Shown here: in pieces, positions 41,106 through 51,562 of the stretch
How the letters are laid out: each line of letters opens with the position of its first letter
How positions within the stretch are numbered: position 1 is the stretch's first letter
IMG/VR virus record: IMGVR_UViG_3300032288_001098
Location: 1-61,273 of that record
Strand: one strand, 5' to 3'
Origin: a virus
Lineage: Duplodnaviria; Caudoviricetes
DNA length: 61,273 bases
Program-made: the position numbers and the translations under genes
Notes under the pieces: generated by a model
Told to the model about the DNA's origin: nothing
What the model saw: the letters and a program-made list of their open reading frames with translations, nothing else
Databases searched by the model: none

Positions 41106-42620
41106 TCAAACTGTGTAAAACCGCTCTCTTGCGCGGCGACCTTTGAAATAAACCGGCTCATCCGGCTCATCGGTATCAATCGGGATGAATCCCCCCTGTC
41201 TGAAACGAAGCAGGGCCTGACTGGTCGAGTCAACAAGGTCATCATGGTCCCCGTTGGGGAAAGAGGCCAGTTCTTCCATCAGTTCATCAGCCCAGCGGGT
41301 CGCAGGACACCACACCACTCCAGAAGCAAACAGGTCAGAAATTGCGTTTACACGCGCAATCTTATCGCTTCCTTTGCTCGGTGTATATTCCGAAAGAGGG
41401 ATGCCCATCTGCCGCAACTCATAGATCAAAGGAGCGCCAGCGGCCTTCTTTTCCACAATCAGGGTGTCCGGGTTCCACTCCTTGAACATCTCAAACGCCT
41501 TTGATTTGAGTTCAGGGAACTCCAAACGGGCCTTGAAGCTGTCCAAAACGATGATGTTGGACTTGTAATTGCCCTTCTCATCAGGATGTTTAAACACCCC
41601 CCACGTTGTACAGGCGGAGTAGTCTGCGCGGTTGGATTTCTCAAAGGCGGTGTCCCAGCTTTGGATGATGTACTCACAAGAGGGGGGTGACTCATGGTCC
41701 CAAATGCGCCATTGGTCCCTCTTGATGATGGCCCCTTCCTCGGAGGTTGGGTTTTGCTGGTACTGGGCCTCCCACTTGGCCACTGGAAGTTCAGCTTTGA
41801 GGGCTTCCAGCTCCTCTTTCTTCCAAAATCCGGGCCAGAGGGGGTTGCCGGAGGGCAAAATGGCGGGAAATTCAATCACTTCCCACTCATCTGTGCCCCC
41901 TTTTTGACTGTTTTTGAGTATTTGGCCGGTCAGATCACGCTTTGCCCAGCGGGTCATCACAATGATGATCGCTCCCCCGGGCTGTAAACGCTGGCGCGGG
42001 CCGGATGTGTACCACTCATACACATTGTCATACACCGCAGGATTGCCCTGCTTGGCCTCTTGCTCCGAATGGGGGTCATCGATGATCAAAACATCGGCAC
42101 CCTTACCCGTAACGGCACCCCCAACACCGATAGCGAAGTAGTCGCCGCCCTTGTCGGTATTCCATCTGCCCGCCGCCTTTGAATCTGTGGACAACTTGGT
42201 CTCAAAAACCCGCCCGTAGGCTTCTGACTGCACCAGATTCCTCACCTTACGACCAAATCCAACAGCCAATTCTGCGGTGTGAGCGGTCTGAATGATCTTC
42301 TTTTCCGGGTACAAACCCAAAAACCAAGCCGGGAGGAGGTAGGAAGCAAACTCGGACTTGGTATGCCGGGGCGGCATATTGATGATCAACCGCTTCAACT
42401 CCCCACGGGCAACCCTCTCAAAGGCGTCAGCCATGATCTGGTGATGTTTACCCGAGATAAACCCCGGCCACATGTGAGAGACAAAGTAAATAAACGAACT
42501 TTTGCACCTCTCTACCCGGTCCATCTCCAAGAGCATCATGATCTTGGCCCGCTTGTCCTCATCCACCAGCGGGATCAGAGCCTTGTAGTTCTCTATCTCA
42601 TCACGGGTCAGTAACGTCAC
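41106..42620 (-). CDS. terL: Terminase large subunit
   Basis: NMPPRHTKS, LIIDDPH, MTRW, SWDTA, HDDLVDS; GTG start overlaps upstream stop. Confidence 0.95.
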   Translation of the reverse strand: MTLLTRDEIENYKALIPLVDEDKRAKIMMLLEMDRVERCKSSFIYFVSHMWPGFISGKHHQIMADAFERVARGELKRLIINMPPRHTKSEFASYLLPAWFLGLYPEKKIIQTAHTAELAVGFGRKVRNLVQSEAYGRVFETKLSTDSKAAGRWNTDKGGDYFAIGVGGAVTGKGADVLIIDDPHSEQEAKQGNPAVYDNVYEWYTSGPRQRLQPGGAIIIVMTRWAKRDLTGQILKNSQKGGTDEWEVIEFPAILPSGNPLWPGFWKKEELEALKAELPVAKWEAQYQQNPTSEEGAIIKRDQWRIWDHESPPSCEYIIQSWDTAFEKSNRADYSACTTWGVFKHPDEKGNYKSNIIVLDSFKARLEFPELKSKAFEMFKEWNPDTLIVEKKAAGAPLIYELRQMGIPLSEYTPSKGSDKIARVNAISDLFASGVVWCPATRWADELMEELASFPNGDHDDLVDSTSQALLRFRQGGFIPIDTDEPDEPVYFKGRRARERFYTV

Positions 42621-42853
42621 AAAGCAGCCACTTCCCTTACAGACCTGTCCACAACCTTGATCCCATTCCACCGAGTAGTTTTGACCGCCAAGTGGCCATC
42701 CTCCTCCAGCTTATGGACAATCCTGTGAATATTCGCCTTGGACTTCATCCCCAATCCCTTGGCAATCACCAAATACGACGGCGATACACCATGAATACGG
42801 ATGTACGCCTTGATGAAGTCATACACCAGCTTGTGCTTTTCTTGCATGCTCAT
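42617..42853 (-). CDS. LexA-type winged-HTH DNA-binding protein
   Basis: VYDFIK.YI..HGVSPSY..IAKGLGMKS..IHRIVHKLEE.G. Confidence 0.75.
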   Translation of the reverse strand: MSMQEKHKLVYDFIKAYIRIHGVSPSYLVIAKGLGMKSKANIHRIVHKLEEDGHLAVKTTRWNGIKVVDRSVREVAAL

Positions 42854-43299: not shown

Positions 43300-43962
43300 T
43301 CAGCCTGCCTTGATTGATTCGCGTCTGATAGGCTTGACGTTGTCCAGCAGGCGTAGGTGTCCAGACAGTTCCCGCTTCAGGTCTTCAGCCGACACCTTCT
43401 CACCCTTGGCATCATCCTCATGTTTAAACAACCCTGATGCCTTGCCGAGGAGTTCCAGTGCTTTGATTTTCGAGCCCTCTTGTTTGGCCTTTGCACTATG
43501 TTCAATCAACCCCCTGAGTACATACCGTCTTGTGGCAACCATGTCTTCCAGCAAGTGTTCCGTTGTCTGCTCGATGGCTTCCTTGACCACCGCTTGAACC
43601 TTCGGGTTCCGCGATAGCGACCATGCCGCCGCCTTAATTGATCTTTCATCTCCCTTGGCATCTGGGTACGCTTCTTTGTACGCTTGCAGTTGGGTTTTCC
43701 CCTCTATCAGACCCTGTGCGTACTTGAGTTGTTTTGCCGTTATTGGTCTCTCCCTCTGGCTCCCTACTGGTTGTCCGTCTGTTCTCCTCTTTGGTGCTTC
43801 TGCGTGGGCGGCTAACCGTTCCGCTTCGCTCAGTTCCGGGCCGCTGTCGGGGCCATCATCGACCGGCTCCATCAGTTCCCGCTCCGCTTCTTCCAGCGCC
43901 GCCATGTACTGTTCTTTGCTGATCTTCCCGGGCCTTGACCCATTGCCTGCCTGCTTGTCCAT
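43300..43962 (-). CDS. terS: Terminase small subunit
   Basis: TAKQ..Y..G..AYKEAY..A..L..NPKV..ALELLGK. Confidence 0.8.
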   Translation of the reverse strand: MDKQAGNGSRPGKISKEQYMAALEEAERELMEPVDDGPDSGPELSEAERLAAHAEAPKRRTDGQPVGSQRERPITAKQLKYAQGLIEGKTQLQAYKEAYPDAKGDERSIKAAAWSLSRNPKVQAVVKEAIEQTTEHLLEDMVATRRYVLRGLIEHSAKAKQEGSKIKALELLGKASGLFKHEDDAKGEKVSAEDLKRELSGHLRLLDNVKPIRRESIKAG

Positions 43963-44110
43963 GTGATTTCCTCCAGTACTGATGCTCCATACAGCATCGT
44001 TCGCCGTGCAGTCTATCTGAGCGGTTTAAACCCGTCAACCATACCTACCCCTTACCCTCTCCCCGATCTCGCCCCCTACGCAGGTCTGCAATGAATAAGT
44101 ACTACATAAC

Positions 44111-44204
44111 TTATCCACACAATTCACCGCCGCCTGTGGACAAGTCCCCATATCCACACTTGCCTGTGATCTGCCGTGGATAACTTAGTAAAACTTTTTT
44201 ATTG
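44111..44204. promoter_or_regulatory. Cluster of four DnaA-box-like motifs plus AT-rich tract (candidate origin)
   Basis: TTATCCACA 44111, TGTGGACAA 44135, ATATCCACA 44150, CGTGGATAA 44175, then an AT-rich run. Confidence 0.6.
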
Positions 44205-44389
44205 CAGACCATCCTCCCTGCCGTTTAAATATCCCCCATGCACCCTACCCCTACCCTGACCCCTTCAGCGCCTTGTAGACCCCTTTTCCCAGAACATGAC
44301 CCCCTCTAATAAGAGCGCCGAATCCACCCGGAGTGCTACGCACCCAGAACCCCCCGATCCAATAACCCTACGGTTTAGTCGGGAATGTA

Positions 44390-44419
44390 TTGACCCTGTT
44401 TACACGCTAGTGCTATGAT
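44390..44419 (+). promoter_or_regulatory. Early sigma70 promoter
   Basis: TTGACC-18 nt-TATGAT with TG extension. Confidence 0.65.
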
Positions 44420-44565
44420 GCGGCCATGCACTAGTGATAGTGCTTATGTGAACGGCCCACGATACGGTCGGTCTGAGGCGAAACCCGGAGGAAGTCCGGG
44501 AGCAAGTCAGACAGGGTTCAGCCCTGTACCAGTCCACCGTGACGGTAGATAAAACATCTCCCAAT

Positions 44566-44615
44566 AGATGCCAACGTGATGCCCTTTCCGAGGGCATTGC
44601 AGTGCCATCTGCACT
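44566..44615 (+). repeat. Intergenic hairpin element copy A
   Basis: AGATG..GTGATGCCCT-loop-AGGGCATTGC AGTGC CATCT GCACT. Confidence 0.8.
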
Positions 44616-44631
44616 TAACCCGGAGAAAACC

Positions 44632-44814
44632 ATGTACAACGTCCTTTTGATCAACGCCAGTGGCTACATCGTTGACCGCAACCACTTTGAAACAGTCACC
44701 GAGGCCCTAGCCCTTGCCGATGAATGGTCTACCGACTATCCCGGCCATGCAATTGACATCAAGTTTGTCCTGCCTGCCCGTGCGCCGACATGGACTGAAT
44801 TGACCCTCGCGTGA
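44632..44814 (+). CDS. Early hypothetical protein
   Basis: CCGGAG RBS and ATG. Confidence 0.65.
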   Translation: MYNVLLINASGYIVDRNHFETVTEALALADEWSTDYPGHAIDIKFVLPARAPTWTELTLA

Positions 44815-44864
44815 TTGCAGTCTGATGCCCTGCTTGTCTGGGCATTGGAGTGCCATCTTGCACT
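44812..44864 (+). repeat. Intergenic hairpin element copy B
   Basis: TGATTGCAG TCTGATGCCC-loop-GGGCATTGGA GTGCCATCTTGCACT. Confidence 0.75.
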
Positions 44865-44880
44865 GACCCGGAGAAACAAC

Positions 44881-45036
44881 ATGGAAACCCTGCTCAATAA
44901 ATACCGCGCCAACCCCACCGCCATCCGTCATGCCGCCGTGCTGACGTATCACCGCAAACACCCATTCGCTGAGTGCTTGCTTGGTGATGATGACCTTGCC
45001 CTGTTGCGCCGCCTGTGTGCATTCAAGCATGACTGA
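44881..45036 (+). CDS. Early hypothetical protein
   Basis: CCGGAG RBS; stop codon lies inside the hammerhead core. Confidence 0.65.
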   Translation: METLLNKYRANPTAIRHAAVLTYHRKHPFAECLLGDDDLALLRRLCAFKHD

Positions 45037-45078
45037 TGAGGCTTAAATAGCCGAAACCCCCGCGAGGGGGTCTCATGC
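45027..45078 (+). ncRNA. Type I hammerhead ribozyme (predicted cleavage 3' of C45072)
   Basis: GCAUGA-CUGAUGA-GGCU/UAAAU/AGCC-GAA-ACCCCC/GCGA/GGGGGU-C-UCAUGC: complete core and three stems. Confidence 0.93.
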
Positions 45079-45096
45079 AACCACCGGAGAGAAACC

Positions 45097-45384
45097 ATGA
45101 CCATCGAATTGACAACCCTCGCCGATGTACTGAAAACATGGGCATTGCCCGAATTGAAGGATGCCCAGAAAGCATTCAACAAACACCCCAATGGGGTGAA
45201 TTGGAACCGCTGTTTGAGGGCAATGCTGACCTATCAGCAACTGGAATTTGCCCTGCGGTCTTCCACCGTGGACAGGGAAAAACTGATGTTTGATCTTGAG
45301 TCAAACTCCCTCGGGCATTGGCAAGATGCTGTTTGCCGAGCAACCATGCGCATGACCTGCGCCCATGCCCTGCGGAACATTTAA
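45097..45384 (+). CDS. Early hypothetical protein (paralog of 45728-46033)
   Basis: RBS; shared K.F.K.P..W..YQQ..W.D..C..ALR pattern. Confidence 0.7.
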   Translation: MTIELTTLADVLKTWALPELKDAQKAFNKHPNGVNWNRCLRAMLTYQQLEFALRSSTVDREKLMFDLESNSLGHWQDAVCRATMRMTCAHALRNI

Positions 45385-45406
45385 ACCAACTGAGAGGAAA
45401 ACCACC

Positions 45407-45661
45407 ATGAAAATCACCGTTTACACAGACCCCGGTCACGGTTGGGGTGCAGTCAAACGTCAACTGCTTGCCGATCTGGGGATCGCCGACAAGGTCTCCA
45501 CGTATTCATACCAGCGGGGCCAGACGGTCTACCTTGAGGAGGACTGCGACCTGTCCCTGCTGATCGGGGCACTGCGTGACCGGGGCATAACCCCCGTGTT
45601 TGCCGAGCGGCACACAGACCGCCGCAGTCCGATCCGATCCTATGACACCTATCACGCCTGA
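45407..45661 (+). CDS. Conserved early phage protein
   Basis: TDPGHGW..S.YSY..YLEEDCD motif. Confidence 0.75.
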   Translation: MKITVYTDPGHGWGAVKRQLLADLGIADKVSTYSYQRGQTVYLEEDCDLSLLIGALRDRGITPVFAERHTDRRSPIRSYDTYHA

Positions 45662-45711
45662 TTCCACCGTGATGCACCCTGCCCCGGGTGCATTGCAGTG
45701 CAATCCGCACT
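45659..45711 (+). repeat. Intergenic hairpin element copy C
   Basis: TGATTCCACC GTGATGCACCC-loop-GGGTGCATTGC AGTGC AATCC GCACT. Confidence 0.85.
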
Positions 45712-45727
45712 TAACCGGAGACCTTCC

Positions 45728-46033
45728 ATGCAAACCACTGACCTCGACTCTGCCGCTGTCATTGCAACCCTCAAGGCTGAAGCCCGAAAGGCCAGCAAGA
45801 ACTTCATCAAGACCCCCCACGCAAATCGGTGGTTCGATATGACCGGAACCGCCTTTGTGTATCAGCAAGCCTACCTCTTCTTCAACAGTTTTACCCGTAG
45901 TCCCCGCGACAAGTTCGCCCTGCTTGCCCTGTTGGCGACCGAGCCGATTGACAACTGGGGTGATGTAATTTGCAACTTCGTGCTTGGCGTGTCTCTCGCC
46001 GAGGCCCTGCGTGAGTTTGCAACCTTCCCCTGA
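45728..46033 (+). CDS. Early hypothetical protein (paralog of 45097-45384)
   Basis: CCGGAG RBS; pattern shared with 45097-45384. Confidence 0.7.
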   Translation: MQTTDLDSAAVIATLKAEARKASKNFIKTPHANRWFDMTGTAFVYQQAYLFFNSFTRSPRDKFALLALLATEPIDNWGDVICNFVLGVSLAEALREFATFP

Positions 46034-46080
46034 TTCCACCGTGATGCCCATTCTGTGGGCATTGCAGTGCAATCCGCACT
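46031..46080 (+). repeat. Intergenic hairpin element copy D
   Basis: TGATTCCACC GTGATGCCCA-TTCTG-TGGGCATTGC AGTGC AATCC GCACT. Confidence 0.85.
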
Positions 46081-46096
46081 TCACTGGAGAAGACAA

Positions 46097-46453
46097 ATGA
46101 ACTACAAGACACAAGCACAAGCCGCCCTCTCAGGCATCAAGCAACTTGGCATTCTGGGCGATGCCATCCGGGCCAAGGAAACTGGCGACATGGGCGGTTT
46201 GGCCTACATCGTTGGCATGGCTCTCAACACCGGTGACTCCGTCAAGTGGGGCCTGCTGTTCGCCGTTGGGGATGAACTCGATGCCATCAAGTTGCAGGCA
46301 GAGATCGATGCCATCGATGCCATGCGTGAGCGAATCGCCTACCTCGAAAGAAAAAGCGAGGCAATGTGGCTTGAAGATCAAGACAACGATGCGTGGGAGC
46401 GAGAGCAAGCCCATGTCCGGTACGCCGAGGCTGGCGGTCGCAAGCACAACTGA
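46097..46453 (+). CDS. Early hypothetical protein
   Basis: GGAG RBS; stop codon inside the second hammerhead core. Confidence 0.7.
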   Translation: MNYKTQAQAALSGIKQLGILGDAIRAKETGDMGGLAYIVGMALNTGDSVKWGLLFAVGDELDAIKLQAEIDAIDAMRERIAYLERKSEAMWLEDQDNDAWEREQAHVRYAEAGGRKHN

Positions 46454-46493
46454 TGAGACCTGAATGGTCGAAACCCCTTCGGGGGTCTTGTGC
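46444..46493 (+). ncRNA. Type I hammerhead ribozyme (predicted cleavage 3' of C46487)
   Basis: GCACAA-CUGAUGA-GACC/UGAAU/GGUC-GAA-ACCCC/UUCG/GGGGU-C-UUGUGC. Confidence 0.93.
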
Positions 46494-46512
46494 AACTAAC
46501 CGGAGACCAACC

Positions 46513-46674
46513 ATGCCAACGAAAACCGAGATTTATGAATACCTGTGCGCCCTGCGCGATTCGGGCGAGGTCAACATGTTCTTAGCCTCGCCCTACCTTG
46601 AATATGAATTCGGCATGACCCGTGCCGAGGCCAAGCAAGCCTTGCTTGATTGGATAAGATCATTTAAACGATGA
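46513..46674 (+). CDS. Small conserved phage protein
   Basis: YL..LRDSG.VNMF.A.PYL..F motif; RBS. Confidence 0.7.
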   Translation: MPTKTEIYEYLCALRDSGEVNMFLASPYLEYEFGMTRAEAKQALLDWIRSFKR

Positions 46675-46830
46675 TGACTTGGCCCTTCCCACCCCCGGGT
46701 GGGCCTGTCCCGTGGACACCCGCGCAGGAGAGGGCCTACCGGCTCAAGCACAAACCCGCGCCACCTGACGGGCCTGATGCCCCCTTCTGATGACCGTACC
46801 TTTCCCGTTGTTTAAATGCAACATGGGTAC

Positions 46831-46857
46831 TTGCACTAGCACCATCGGTGCTACAAT
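46831..46857 (+). promoter_or_regulatory. Extended -10 promoter overlapped by palindrome TAGCAC-N5-GTGCTA
   Basis: TG-C-TACAAT; TTGCAC only 15 nt upstream, so spacing is suboptimal. Confidence 0.5.
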
Positions 46858-46882
46858 CACAATCACCAACCGGAGAAACAAA

Positions 46883-47464
46883 ATGTCTATGTCCTACAGC
46901 ACCCGTGAAGAATGGCTGACCGCCGCCGTTGAGGAACTTCGCCCCGTTTTCGGGGCAGTCAACAAACCCATCCCCGCCAAAATCCGGGTCGCCTGTGGCT
47001 TCCCGTTGGATGCCAAGCGTAGCAAGGCCATCGGCCAATGTTGGGCCGACACCGCCAGCGGGGACAAGACCATCGAGATTCTGATCTCGCCGGTGCTGGA
47101 CAAACCCTCCGAGGTTTTCGAGGTGCTGGTGCATGAGTTGTGCCATGCCACGGCAGGTGCGTTTAACCACGGCGTGAATTTTCAAAAGGTCGCCGCCATG
47201 ATGGGTCTGGTTGCCTGCGGGGGTGGAAAGCAATCATGGAAGTCCACCAAGGGCAATGCCGACTTCCTCCAGACCTATGGAGCGATTATCGATTCGCTCC
47301 AAGACTACCCGCATGCCGCCCTGACGTACCGGGACAAAAAGACGCAGGGAACCCGCCTGCTGAAGGCTATGTGCCCGTCCTGCGGGTACACCATTCGATT
47401 GACCCAGAAATGGGCCGACCAAGGCCTGCCTACCTGCCCCTGCGGCGACCAGTTGTCACTTTAA
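46883..47464 (+). CDS. SprT-like zinc metalloprotease
   Basis: LVHELCH..HG..F plus C-terminal CPSC/CPC ribbon. Confidence 0.85.
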   Translation: MSMSYSTREEWLTAAVEELRPVFGAVNKPIPAKIRVACGFPLDAKRSKAIGQCWADTASGDKTIEILISPVLDKPSEVFEVLVHELCHATAGAFNHGVNFQKVAAMMGLVACGGGKQSWKSTKGNADFLQTYGAIIDSLQDYPHAALTYRDKKTQGTRLLKAMCPSCGYTIRLTQKWADQGLPTCPCGDQLSL

Positions 47465-47478
47465 ACCGGAGAATCACC

Positions 47479-48903
47479 ATGATCATCAAAGAAGTCGAAA
47501 TCGCCCGTCTGCCCCTGAGCAAGGTCTATGGGGCCTATCAGCAATACCATCACAAGCCTTCATCGTGGAAGAACAAGGCAGATGCAGTCGGCTGGCTTGC
47601 TCTTCAGGTCGAGGCCGGGGCATTGTCGATGGACAGCATCCGGAGCGCCCCGGATGCAATGCCCTCTGCCGCCCCTGCCGGGGTCGACCCCGCGCTGGTT
47701 GCCGCTCTTGAAAAGAAGATCGCCGACCAGAAGGCTATCTCCCTTCAGGCCCTGCAACGGGCAGACCATGTTGCCGACCGGCTGATCAATGAGGTCAACA
47801 CCCTGACCGACACCCTCGTTGAGACCGAGCGCCGCCTGCATAATTCGATTACATCCAGCAAACCCGACCTGTCGAACGTGCAGTATGAGGTCGCCCGTGC
47901 GGTGCGTGATGCGTTCGCGCCCTTCCAAAAGGCAGTGCAGGATGCCGGGGCCGAGGTCGCGGTGGCGCAGGCATCCTCAGTTGTTCCGGTCGGGCGCAAG
48001 CCTGTGTCCGAGGTGTTTGGTGTTGCCGTGCATGACATGCGCGGGGCCGAGTTGACGGTCGAGGTCTGGGATCACCCGGAGGCCCCCGCCGTTGACCCGG
48101 ATTTCATCTGGACAGAGTCGATTCTGCGCTACCTGACACTAGCAGACCGCACCGGCGACAACCTGTGGTTTGGCGGGGAAAAGGGTACAGGAAAGTCCGA
48201 GACCGCCAGACAGTTTGCCGCGCGTACAGGTCGCGCGTTTAAACGCATCAACTTCCACAAGCACACCTCTGCCGAGGAATATGTGGGTGCGGTGGGTCTG
48301 GTTGACGGGCAAACCGTGTTTCAGCCCAAGGATTTTTTGCAGGCCTACACCTCGCCCTCCACCGTGATCCTGCTCGATGAGGTGACCAACGCAGACCCGG
48401 GGGAACTGGCCCCGCTCAATGGCTTTCTTGAACCCAACGCCGCTGTTTCATTCGGGGGCCAGACGCACCGCCGTGCGCCCGGGGTGCTGGTCTTCGCCGC
48501 CGACAATACCTTCGGTTCCGGTGATGATTCAGGTCGCCATGTTGGGACGCGAGTCCAAAATTCTGCTCTGATTGACCGGTTCGCCCACGTTGTACCGTTC
48601 ACGTTTCTCCCCGAGGCTCAGGAGATCGATGCCATCGTGCGCCGCACGGGTTGTGCCCGGGAACTTGCAGAGCATGTCATGGCATGCATCACGGTCGCCC
48701 GTCAGAAAGTCACCAGTGGGGACATTGTGGACGCACCGTCCATCCGCTCTGCAATGGCCTTCGTCCGCGCCGTGAGCGTCCTGCCGGTTGACCAAGCATG
48801 GCGCACCGCTGTTGTCGCCCGTCAGCCGAGTGAATCTCATGCTGAGTTGAACCTGATCTTCACCGCCTGCATCAACGCAGACACCATCAAAAAATATTTG
48901 TGA
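47479..48903 (+). CDS. MoxR/CbbQ/CobS-like AAA+ ATPase
   Basis: GEKGTGKS, LLDEV, AADNT.G.G, ALIDRF, SIR. Confidence 0.9.
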   Translation: MIIKEVEIARLPLSKVYGAYQQYHHKPSSWKNKADAVGWLALQVEAGALSMDSIRSAPDAMPSAAPAGVDPALVAALEKKIADQKAISLQALQRADHVADRLINEVNTLTDTLVETERRLHNSITSSKPDLSNVQYEVARAVRDAFAPFQKAVQDAGAEVAVAQASSVVPVGRKPVSEVFGVAVHDMRGAELTVEVWDHPEAPAVDPDFIWTESILRYLTLADRTGDNLWFGGEKGTGKSETARQFAARTGRAFKRINFHKHTSAEEYVGAVGLVDGQTVFQPKDFLQAYTSPSTVILLDEVTNADPGELAPLNGFLEPNAAVSFGGQTHRRAPGVLVFAADNTFGSGDDSGRHVGTRVQNSALIDRFAHVVPFTFLPEAQEIDAIVRRTGCARELAEHVMACITVARQKVTSGDIVDAPSIRSAMAFVRAVSVLPVDQAWRTAVVARQPSESHAELNLIFTACINADTIKKYL

Positions 48904-48914
48904 GGAGTTTAAAC

Positions 48915-50522
48915 ATGAAACGCTATAAGGGTTATGAATTCCGCGCCGGGGTTGAAGCCTTCGCCAGCAAGGCCACCAAGGCCCTCGGGCTGACTGGTGT
49001 CAACATCGTCTGGTCTCGCGGCATCAGCACCGCAGGCATCGACAATCGCGGGACACTGTACCTGTCTGACGTTGACGATGCGTCCACGCTGACCGAGACC
49101 GACCTGCACAAGTATTGCGGCTTCGTCCTGCATGAGTTGTGCCACCATGCCTACACCAACTTTAATGTTCGCGGCTCGACCGATTACATCCGCACCCTGC
49201 ATAATGCAGTGGAGGATGCATGGATCGAACACCGCGCCATCGACCGCTCCTTGATGGGCAATGTCGCACAGGTTTTTGAGGTGCTGATCGCCGGGATGGT
49301 GGCTGATGCCCTCGGCTCTGTGACTGATTGGGCTGACCCCCGTCAGTACCCCTTCGCCCTCGCCGTATACCTGCGCAAGCATGCCGCCCGTAAAGTGCCC
49401 CTTGCCAACGGTCTGGAACCGATCTTCCGCGAGGCAGGTCTGCGTCTGGAGAGTGCGCAGAGCAGTGTGGACACCCTTGCAATTGCAGAGTGGGTCATGT
49501 CCCAACTCAAGGCCCTGCAACCGGAGCAAAAGCCCAACGAACCCAACAAACCCAACGATAAGCCAAAGCAAGGCCCTAAGGGTGACGCTGGTGACGCTGA
49601 CGGTGATGACGCTGGTGATGACGCTGGTGACGCTGATGACGCTGACGCTGGTGACGATGCTGGCAACCCCGGCGATCCCGGGCAAGGTGGCAAGCCTGTC
49701 GGTGATGCGACCGCACCCGCTGATGATTGTTCCCCCGCAGAGGTCGAACCCTCCATCGAGGGCAACAGTGTGACGCGAACATATTATGATCGCACTGACA
49801 TCATCGATCCAGCCAAGTGCCTTGAGGCCAAGTGGCAGGAGATCAAGACCACCGTCCCGGGTCGCCTGCGCTACAACCTTCGCCGCCTGTTTGACAACAG
49901 CGACCGCACTGATTTTCAACTCGGTCGCAAGTACGGGTCTGTGAATTCGTCCGCTCTGCCGACCTACCAGCACAATGCCAATGTGTTTAAACTTCGCCGC
50001 GAGATTGACGGGATCGAATCTGCGGTGGTGATCTGCCTCGATGTCTCATCATCTATGTACCGGGATGAGGCAGACAGGCGGCGCATCCGGCTGGCAAGCG
50101 AATGCACCGCCGCCCTGCTTGAGACACTCAAGCATGCGCAGGTCTCCACCTCGCTGATTGCCTACGGGTCAAAGGTCTCTGTGATCAAACGCTGGACGGA
50201 CGGTCTACCAGTTACACGGGATCGCCTGAGCAAGATCGCCTCGCAGGGATCGACCCATACCTTTATAGCCATGCGTCATGCGCATGAACTGCTGATGGCC
50301 CGACCGGAGGCCCGGAAGGTCTGCATCGTGCTGACGGACGGTGAGTGCAACGCACCCTTCGACAGTAAGCATCAGGTTCAAGTGGGCAAGGCTCTTGGGA
50401 TCACCACCATTGGCATCGGCATCAGTCTTGATGTCAGTCGTGTATTCCCTGAGCATATCAACGTCAGGGATGTTAAAGACCTCGCCGAGGCCACATTTAA
50501 GCAGATCAAACTGGCGGCATGA
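48915..50522 (+). CDS. CobT-like VWA protein with N-terminal HExxH domain and acidic linker
   Basis: LHELCH..NAVED..IE; MIDAS LDVSSSM, T, LTDG. Confidence 0.88.
   Translation: MKRYKGYEFRAGVEAFASKATKALGLTGVNIVWSRGISTAGIDNRGTLYLSDVDDASTLTETDLHKYCGFVLHELCHHAYTNFNVRGSTDYIRTLHNAVEDAWIEHRAIDRSLMGNVAQVFEVLIAGMVADALGSVTDWADPRQYPFALAVYLRKHAARKVPLANGLEPIFREAGLRLESAQSSVDTLAIAEWVMSQLKALQPEQKPNEPNKPNDKPKQGPKGDAGDADGDDAGDDAGDADDADAGDDAGNPGDPGQGGKPVGDATAPADDCSPAEVEPSIEGNSVTRTYYDRTDIIDPAKCLEAKWQEIKTTVPGRLRYNLRRLFDNSDRTDFQLGRKYGSVNSSALPTYQHNANVFKLRREIDGIESAVVICLDVSSSMYRDEADRRRIRLASECTAALLETLKHAQVSTSLIAYGSKVSVIKRWTDGLPVTRDRLSKIASQGSTHTFIAMRHAHELLMARPEARKVCIVLTDGECNAPFDSKHQVQVGKALGITTIGIGISLDVSRVFPEHINVRDVKDLAEATFKQIKLAA
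49581..49662 (+). repeat. Degenerate GGTGACGCT / GATGAC tandem repeat encoding a G/D/A linker
   Basis: Direct reading. Confidence 0.8.
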
Positions 50523-51409: not shown

Positions 51410-51562
51410 ATGACCTACAACCTGCGATCTGATGAGTCATACGAAGACGAAATGTACGACCTCTACCTTGAGCGTCAGGCCCGTCTGCGCTACGAGCGCA
51501 CCTTGGCCCGACACCCAGACCCGCAAGACCCAGACTACCCGGAGATCGATGATGAAGCATGA
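51410..51562 (+). CDS. Small acidic protein
   Basis: AGGAG RBS; HPDPQDPDYP. Confidence 0.55.
   Translation: MTYNLRSDESYEDEMYDLYLERQARLRYERTLARHPDPQDPDYPEIDDEA

Follow-up and report, generated by a model that had tools for sequence, protein, structure and literature searches.

Type I Hammerhead Ribozymes and a Second RNA Cassette Between the Small Genes of a Phage Operon

Organization of the Locus

The DNA analyzed here (the window) is one whole virus record of IMG/VR, IMGVR_UViG_3300032288_001098 (Duplodnaviria; Caudoviricetes), which represents an uncultured tailed phage, comprises 61,273 bases and is estimated to be 98% complete. An operon of small orphan open reading frames (ORFs) starts on its plus strand at about 44.4 kb (Table 1). 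Two hammerhead ribozyme motifs, designated HH1 and HH2, are situated in this operon on the plus strand, 1.4 kb apart and around four small ORFs, which is the clustered arrangement of phage hammerheads. The stop codon of the gene preceding each of them (g1 and g5, respectively) is the first UGA of the core C-UGA-UGA, and the 5′ strands of stem I are coding. The same kind of intergenic slot is filled elsewhere in the operon by another structured element, motif X.

Table 1. Features of the operon and of its surroundings (positions in the window).
Feature	Position	Strand	Description
Large terminase	41106-42671	-	Gene annotation
Small terminase	43300-43962	-	Gene annotation
Promoter of early operon	44390-44419	+	Sigma-70-like; TTGACC, 18 nt, TG-n-TATGAT
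Leader RNA	44444-44560	+	Conserved, structured, ~115 nt; between promoter and motif X copy D
Motif X copy D	44562-44617	+	70.7 bits; first in operon, directly after leader
ORF g0	44632-44814	+	60 aa; GGAG ahead of ATG
Motif X copy A	44808-44866	+	59.5 bits; upstream UGA 44812-14; homologous to copy in L159
ORF g1	44881-45036	+	51 aa, ..AFKHD*; last three sense codons and stop form HH1 stem I/core
Hammerhead HH1	45027-45078	+	Type I; predicted cut after C45072; descriptor, covariance model, fold
ORF g2	45097-45384	+	95 aa; first gene past HH1 cut
ORF g3	45407-45661	+	84 aa
Motif X copy B	45655-45713	+	65.8 bits; GA of UGA stop 45659-61 starts pseudoknot
ORF g4	45728-46033	+	101 aa
Motif X copy C	46027-46082	+	69.2 bits; GA of UGA stop 46031-33 starts pseudoknot
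ORF g5	46097-46453	+	118 aa, ..GGRKHN*; last codons and stop form HH2 stem I/core
Hammerhead HH2	46444-46493	+	Type I; predicted cut after C46487; descriptor, covariance model, fold
ORF g6	46513-46674	+	53 aa; first gene past HH2 cut
SprT-like, AAA_5/MoxR-like and VWA genes	46790-50522	+	After the small-ORF block

Structure of HH1 and HH2

The sequence evidence gives good support to the classification of HH1 and HH2 as genuine type I hammerheads, new members of a kind known since 2011. In both copies CUGAUGA, GAAA and GUC are correctly placed. Stem I of HH1 (6 bp) is formed by GCAUGA (45027-32) and UCAUGC (45073-78). The core CUGAUGA (45033-39) is followed by stem II (GGCU/AGCC with the loop UAAAU, 45040-52), by GAAA (45053-56) and by stem III (A-CCCCC/GGGGG-U with the loop GCGA, 45056-71); C17 corresponds to C45072. 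HH2 is built in the same manner from a 6-bp stem I (GCACAA, 46444-49, paired with UUGUGC, 46488-93), the core (46450-56), stem II (GACC/GGUC, loop UGAAU), GAAA (46470-73) and a GC-rich stem III with the loop UUCG, C17 being C46487. An earlier note on this DNA had described two hammerheads with an intact core, the GUC triplet and the loops GCGA and UUCG; sequence, descriptor and fold agree that both motifs are complete.

The descriptor devised for this analysis, which consists of the core and three stems of at least 3 bp each, was applied to both strands of the 61-kb genome. It matches HH1 and HH2 only, compared with a mean of 0.07 and a maximum of 2 matches in 100 shuffles. With filters off, the family covariance model gives the two motifs bit scores of 76.4 and 71.8, and the runner-up receives 12.3 bits. 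The latter (51419-51497) was considered as a third hammerhead and is read as a chance match: it lies within an ORF starting at 51411 and is devoid of stem I.

The three helices are recovered by folding, since the minimum free energy structure obtained with RNAfold is the hammerhead fold in both cases (-22.4 kcal/mol, z -3.6, for HH1; -18.6 kcal/mol, z -3.3, for HH2). This fold is retained when some 30 nt of flanking sequence are included at either end (106-111 nt in total). Comparison of HH1 with HH2 reveals compensatory double changes at four pairs, two each in stems I and II, which is in line with the fully compensatory stems claimed previously. The next ATG codons, at 45097 and 46513, leave post-cut leaders of 24 nt (HH1) and 25 nt (HH2) that carry GGAG; the distance of about 25 nt proposed before is thus accurate.

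The Hammerhead Family in IMG/VR

HH1 and HH2 belong to a family found in IMG/VR with a search pattern in which the core, GAAA and a CCCC/GGGG stem III are the sole fixed parts; at least 129 loci contain it. Stem I reaches at least 4 bp in 117 of the 123 distinct matches listed and is exactly 6 bp long in 72 of them. This large phage hammerhead family escapes the curated thresholds of Rfam.

The alignment comprises 93 members, namely HH1, HH2 and 91 rows pre-selected to have 5 or more pairs in stem I and 4 or more in stem II. Double changes are observed in all six pairs of stem I and in three of the four pairs of stem II. Paired cells amount to 98.4%, compared with 74.4% for shuffled partners and 32-46% for slid partners; the pre-selection of rows inflates this percentage, the variety of pair types being unaffected by it. 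Stem III is set by the search pattern and stands outside the covariation test. Its loops are GNRA in 44 members and UNCG in 30 (74 of 93 together).

Further positions are conserved near the helices. A is found at -7 in 81 of 93 members, stem I is immediately followed by AA in 68 of the 93, and loop II is U-N-A-N-U-like. The combination of a 6-bp stem I, a 4-bp stem II and a U-N-A-N-U-like loop is the geometry in which natural hammerheads dock. These conserved nucleotides could represent a docking site.

A Shine-Dalgarno-like site and a start codon occur within 80 nt past the cut in 101 of 122 members. The median distance from the cut to the start codon is 27 nt, and 73 of these 101 members have it at 18-34 nt, so the leaders of HH1 and HH2 are typical of the family.

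Upstream Stop Codons and C-Terminal Tails

The stem I 5′ strands had been described earlier as coding, with the core UGA as the stop codon, and the coordinates of g1 and g5 support this description. The reading of stem I is AAG CAU GAC UGA in HH1 (K-H-D) and AAG CAC AAC UGA in HH2 (K-H-N). The K-H-N/D tail terminates unrelated proteins: g1, g5 and a homologue of g2 in the related locus L071 (..IKHN*). Judging by the sequences, C-terminal tails of the K/Q/E-H-N/D type can be dictated by stem I of the ribozyme instead of by protein function.

The position of the upstream stop was scanned in 103 members whose stem I has 4 or more pairs and whose stem II has 2 or more. In each of them the longest ORF of 45 or more codons terminating close to the motif was taken as the upstream gene, and such an ORF could be called in 99 of the 103. 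With offsets measured from C of CUGAUGA to the first nucleotide of the stop, the most used positions are +1 (the core UGA, 22/99), +11 (start of loop II, 13/99), -9 (just upstream of stem I, 11/99), -8 (UAG whose G is shared with stem I, 11/99) and -3 (the last triplet of stem I, 9/99). Stops between -9 and +14 of the core account for 69 of 99 members. The reading frames are used almost evenly (43, 29 and 27 of 99), the loci not being independent of each other.

The cassette itself offers stops in several frames. HH1 contains stops in all three frames within 17 nt (45030-45046): UGA at 45030-32, UGA UGA at 45034-39 and UAA at 45044-46. In the family, the last triplet of stem I is a stop in 36 of 103 members, and a third-frame stop is located within stem II or loop II in 58 of 103. 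A gene abutting the cassette therefore ends at whichever stop is in frame. Since the stop offsets are spread and the frames are near even, the overlap looks like the result of tight packing and frame chance; on this sequence evidence the stop within the core is real but ordinary for the hammerhead family.

Motif X and the Leader RNA

Motif X is the second RNA cassette of the operon. Its pattern gives five matches for four elements in the genome versus none in 100 shuffles, and with the R2 model the four copies score 59.5-70.7 bits, on the plus strand only. The exact pattern is found at 78 IMG/VR loci. The alignment is based on 62 distinct copies; 12 loci (L152, L153, L157, L165, L169, L171, L172, L185, L193, L196, L206 and L208) were dropped as coding and without the fold, and 53 copies were aligned, including the four of this phage.

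The fold consists of an 11-bp stem 1 with tandem U.G/G.U, one unpaired A and a 4-bp stem 2 (GUGC/GCAC), and the loop of stem 2 forms a pseudoknot with a stretch located 11-13 nt ahead of stem 1. Covariation is seen at positions that the pattern does not constrain: the closing pair of stem 1 is GC in 39 aligned rows, CG in the other 14 and unpaired in none. In the pseudoknot 84% of cells are paired and four pairs show double changes; its mean length is 4.61 bp versus 3.77 bp with loops permuted among loci (maximum of 200 permutations 4.02).

In copies A, B and C the 5′ strand of motif X begins on GA of the upstream UGA. Of the 24 copies with a preceding ORF and 4 or more pseudoknot pairs, 14, including copies B and C, have the stop starting exactly one base ahead of the pseudoknot. 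All four copies of the operon end 17 nt ahead of the next ATG.

In 14 of the 78 loci a hammerhead of the family described above is situated downstream of motif X and on its strand. Matches resembling motif X occur in 6 of the 129 hammerhead loci listed, and motif X is thus confined to a sub-lineage. Two cultured Autographiviridae possess related elements in their early regions: a diverged motif X in Sphaerotilus phage vB_SnaP-R1 (L330:1766-1828) and a short form devoid of stem 1 in Xylella phage Paz (L331:1496-1528). The annotated start of gp3 in vB_SnaP-R1 (locus 1789) is probably miscalled, because it falls inside the element. When the pattern was applied to genome contigs, none of the 120 matches listed passed the structural filter, for which reason these 120 matches look like chance.

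No Rfam family corresponds to motif X at E<=10 in searches with 2.1 kb or with 91 nt, the only matches being spurious microRNA hairpins. Twister, twister-sister, pistol, hatchet and HDV-like ribozymes were set aside on the basis of topology and this Rfam result. Candidate roles for motif X include those of ribozyme, nuclease signal, end protector and put-like antiterminator. With its two hairpins joined by a single A and its first copy placed after an early promoter it may resemble the put-type antiterminator RNA of HK022, in which one unpaired base separates two hairpins downstream of an early promoter and the RNA acts on RNA polymerase.

The leader RNA is present in 27 copies in related loci, of which 24 were aligned. 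RNAalifold predicts 26 pairs from these 24 copies, six of them with compensatory changes, and no Rfam match was obtained at E<=10. The interchangeable, stop-anchored motif X and the conserved leader RNA constitute the more unusual content of the locus.

Exchange of Cassettes at Orthologous Junctions

The closest homologue of g1 (locus L159, 81% identity) aligns with the phage sequence through motif X copy A and the gene up to ..CAF. The two sequences split exactly at the last three codons, where HH1 is found here and an element resembling motif X in L159, and they rejoin at CAACCA.CGGAGA..ATGACC. As the flanks are homologous and the cassette differs, cassettes are exchangeable at an orthologous junction. 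The C-terminal tail of g1 homologues varies with the type of junction, and what comes after the homologues of g1-g4 is a hammerhead, motif X, a variant of these or no cassette.

Gene Content of the Region

The promoter-like site has 10 of 12 matches and a TG extension, and the block containing it is kept in relatives. No terminator-like site was detected on the plus strand in 43900-47300. None of g0-g6 has a Pfam or PHROG match. By tblastn, g1 has 25 homologues among related loci and g2 has many. For g5, no relatives were found by a protein-pattern search of IMG/VR, and tblastn on the fetched related loci gave one partial homologue. The loci matched by g2 and g4 in tblastn searches are largely the same; because of this coincidence, g2 and g4 may be distant paralogues.

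Genes of the SprT-like, AAA_5/MoxR-like and VWA families, which follow the small ORFs, are among those reported near bacterial hammerhead and twister ribozymes. Cultured phages gave only two short unrelated matches to the 3.4-kb region and no match to HH2 with its leader.

Proposed Function and Alternative Explanations

The motif, the family membership, the covariation and the gene layout are direct observations. Both hammerheads lie on the gene strand, with a promoter-like site upstream and no plus-strand terminator-like site in between. The interpretation preferred here, with a probability of about 0.7, is that HH1 and HH2 are of the active type, are part of one plus-strand early transcript and serve in the processing of polycistronic mRNA. 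By analogy to the prophage hammerheads that have been assayed, each motif of 50-52 nt, once transcribed and free of ribosomes, would fold and cut after C45072 or C46487. The upstream mRNA would retain its stop codon and end in the very stable GC-rich hairpin of stem III (GNRA or UUCG loop) with a 2′,3′-cyclic phosphate. The downstream mRNA would begin with a 5′-hydroxyl and a constant leader of 24-25 nt bearing the Shine-Dalgarno site. The transcript would thereby be split into the units g0-g1, g2-g5 and g6 onward, which would have defined and partly protected ends and a ribosome-binding site insulated from upstream sequence. Effects on mRNA stability and translation are expected to follow from such cleavage. 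The termination of an ORF on the core UGA would then be a by-product of packing: the gene would run into the cassette and halt at the first in-frame stop.

Several points weigh against mRNA processing by HH1 and HH2, in addition to the two restrictions on the covariation figures given above. At the gathering score, Rfam has no match for HH1 or HH2 and places them in none of its families; the sub-threshold scores are 28.3 bits for HH9 (cut-off 52) and 26.1 and 20.3 bits for RAGATH-1-hammerhead (cut-off 56.3). No loop-loop or pseudoknot tertiary contact is obvious by eye, and a ribozyme that truly lacks one might cleave slowly at physiological Mg2+. In relatives, cassettes are missing altogether from many of the homologous junctions, which indicates that the element is dispensable. 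Finally, protection of the downstream mRNA by its 5′-hydroxyl, as suggested by the earlier note, can be accepted in part: RNase E cuts 5′-hydroxylated substrates with low efficiency, yet 5′-end-independent direct entry is described as a major pathway of this enzyme (PMC4191395).

The overlap of the stop codon with the core could alternatively have been selected because it makes the extent or timing of cleavage depend on translation of the upstream gene, a coupling suggested by the earlier note. With a translated stem I and a stop codon inside the core, the ribozyme has to stay open while the ribosome terminates, and this premise is physically sound. In all those members whose stop lies in the interval from -9 to +14, the terminating ribosome would sit on the 5′ portion of the ribozyme, and the start of motif X on a stop codon in 14 of the 24 copies considered above points in the same direction. 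There is also a precedent, since the splicing of T4 group I introns depends on upstream exon translation, and an early in-frame stop within the intron is regarded as an aid to folding (PMC3984707). Against this, the stop has no preferred register, with the core UGA used by fewer than a quarter of the members and no frame clearly favored, and proximity to a stop discriminates poorly because compact phage genomes place almost everything beside stops. The direction of the effect is ambiguous as well: the ribosome could hinder folding or could help it by preventing mispairing with the coding sequence. Moreover, a single cut per molecule would be enough and might occur after the last ribosome. Translation coupling is thus a plausible idea that finds no support in the comparisons made here, which cannot separate it from compaction, and as the selected reason for the overlap it is considered rather unlikely. 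A wider and equally doubtful proposal holds that the operon is punctuated by interchangeable stop-carrying cassettes, that motif X is either a self-cleaving ribozyme of a new class or a new protein-independent mRNA boundary element, and that the folding of both cassettes is gated by the terminating ribosome.

The exchange of cassettes suggests a different explanation, namely that they serve chiefly as interchangeable modules at gene junctions, either linkers for recombination or selfish passengers, and that RNA cleavage is incidental and matters little to the phage. It is favored by the replacement observed in L159 at the same junction with homologous flanks and by the variety of elements downstream of g1-g4 homologues. 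Contigs of four public runs match the cassettes only and then continue into unlike sequence (share 0.54-0.91), and contig depth, which refers to contigs and not to reads, peaks at the hammerhead and motif X bins. However, the helices are preserved by compensatory changes, which show that selection acts on the folding of the RNA and goes beyond DNA identity; the placement just 5′ of the ribosome-binding site is constant, and the catalytic core is intact in all matches, although it is invariant by the search pattern. This explanation is regarded as improbable. The short open stem I, the lack of an identified tertiary contact and the sub-threshold Rfam scores would also be compatible with purely structural motifs, i.e., hairpins resembling 3′ ends or insulators of ribosome-binding sites that have no useful rate of cleavage in the cell. 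All 13 core positions, however, are at consensus, and a plain hairpin would need no CUGAUGA...GAAA. The putative docking nucleotides (A at -7 and AA after stem I) are likewise kept beside the 6-bp stem I, the 4-bp stem II and the U-N-A-N-U-like loop, so a purely structural role is very hard to credit. Processing of the polycistronic transcript by active hammerheads accordingly remains the preferred interpretation.

The operon represents a compact natural test bed, as it contains two hammerheads with translated 5′ halves, four motif X copies in equivalent slots and a relative in which the kinds of cassette are swapped at one junction. It does not answer the elusive question of the roles of genomic hammerheads. 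For the study of small phage proteins it implies that short C-terminal tails of the K/Q/E-H-N/D type can stem from a ribozyme helix.

Comparison with Known Systems

RiboJ is an engineered hammerhead placed directly 5′ of the ribosome-binding site, where it strips upstream RNA and raises or standardizes expression. It is synthetic and sits in a 5′ untranslated region, whereas HH1 and HH2 lie between natural genes. In the early genes of phage T7, RNase III sites between cistrons split one transcript and leave protective hairpins. T7 relies on a host enzyme for this purpose, whereas in the operon described here the hammerhead RNA would cut itself.

Among Rfam families, Hammerhead_HH9 (RF02275) and RAGATH-1-hammerhead (RF03152), both of clan CL00010, share with HH1 and HH2 the type I topology, and the core and stems II and III can be aligned. 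Unlike these families, HH1 and HH2 possess neither the outer stem of HH9 nor the upstream hairpin of RAGATH-1.

The T4 group I introns, as presented in PMC3984707, resemble HH1 and HH2 in that a ribozyme directly follows translated sequence and has a stop in its 5′ part. There, the in-frame stop keeps ribosomes out of the catalytic fold, and the ribosome affects folding. The introns differ in belonging to another class of ribozymes, in performing splicing and not cleavage, and in their dependence on translation, which is known for them and not for hammerheads. To judge from titles and the opening parts of abstracts, none of the papers listed in a literature search deals with natural genes that use the core UGA to terminate. 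The two UGA triplets of the core are noted in a preprint (bioRxiv 10.64898/2026.03.05.709948) only as part of a speculation on the origin of the genetic code.

Type II hammerheads are reported to cut in vivo in D. vulgaris (PMC8782182). A 2019 review (PMC6765202) describes the roles of bacterial and phage hammerheads as largely elusive and restates the idea of processing. This idea was put forward by Perreault et al. 2011 (PMC3088659), who proposed that long phage transcripts are processed into mRNAs of gene or operon length. In their account, prophage hammerheads flank single genes or short blocks, and three tandem arrangements were cut during in vitro transcription and one in E. coli. Neither "stop codon" nor "overlap" occurs in the main text of that paper, and its supplementary alignments may already include the 6-bp subfamily. 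The present locus agrees with those prophage clusters in having several hammerheads of the same orientation between small phage genes and an identical core consensus. It differs from them in that the subfamily found here is of type I, with an open stem I of exactly 6 bp that overlaps the preceding ORF at its 3′ end.

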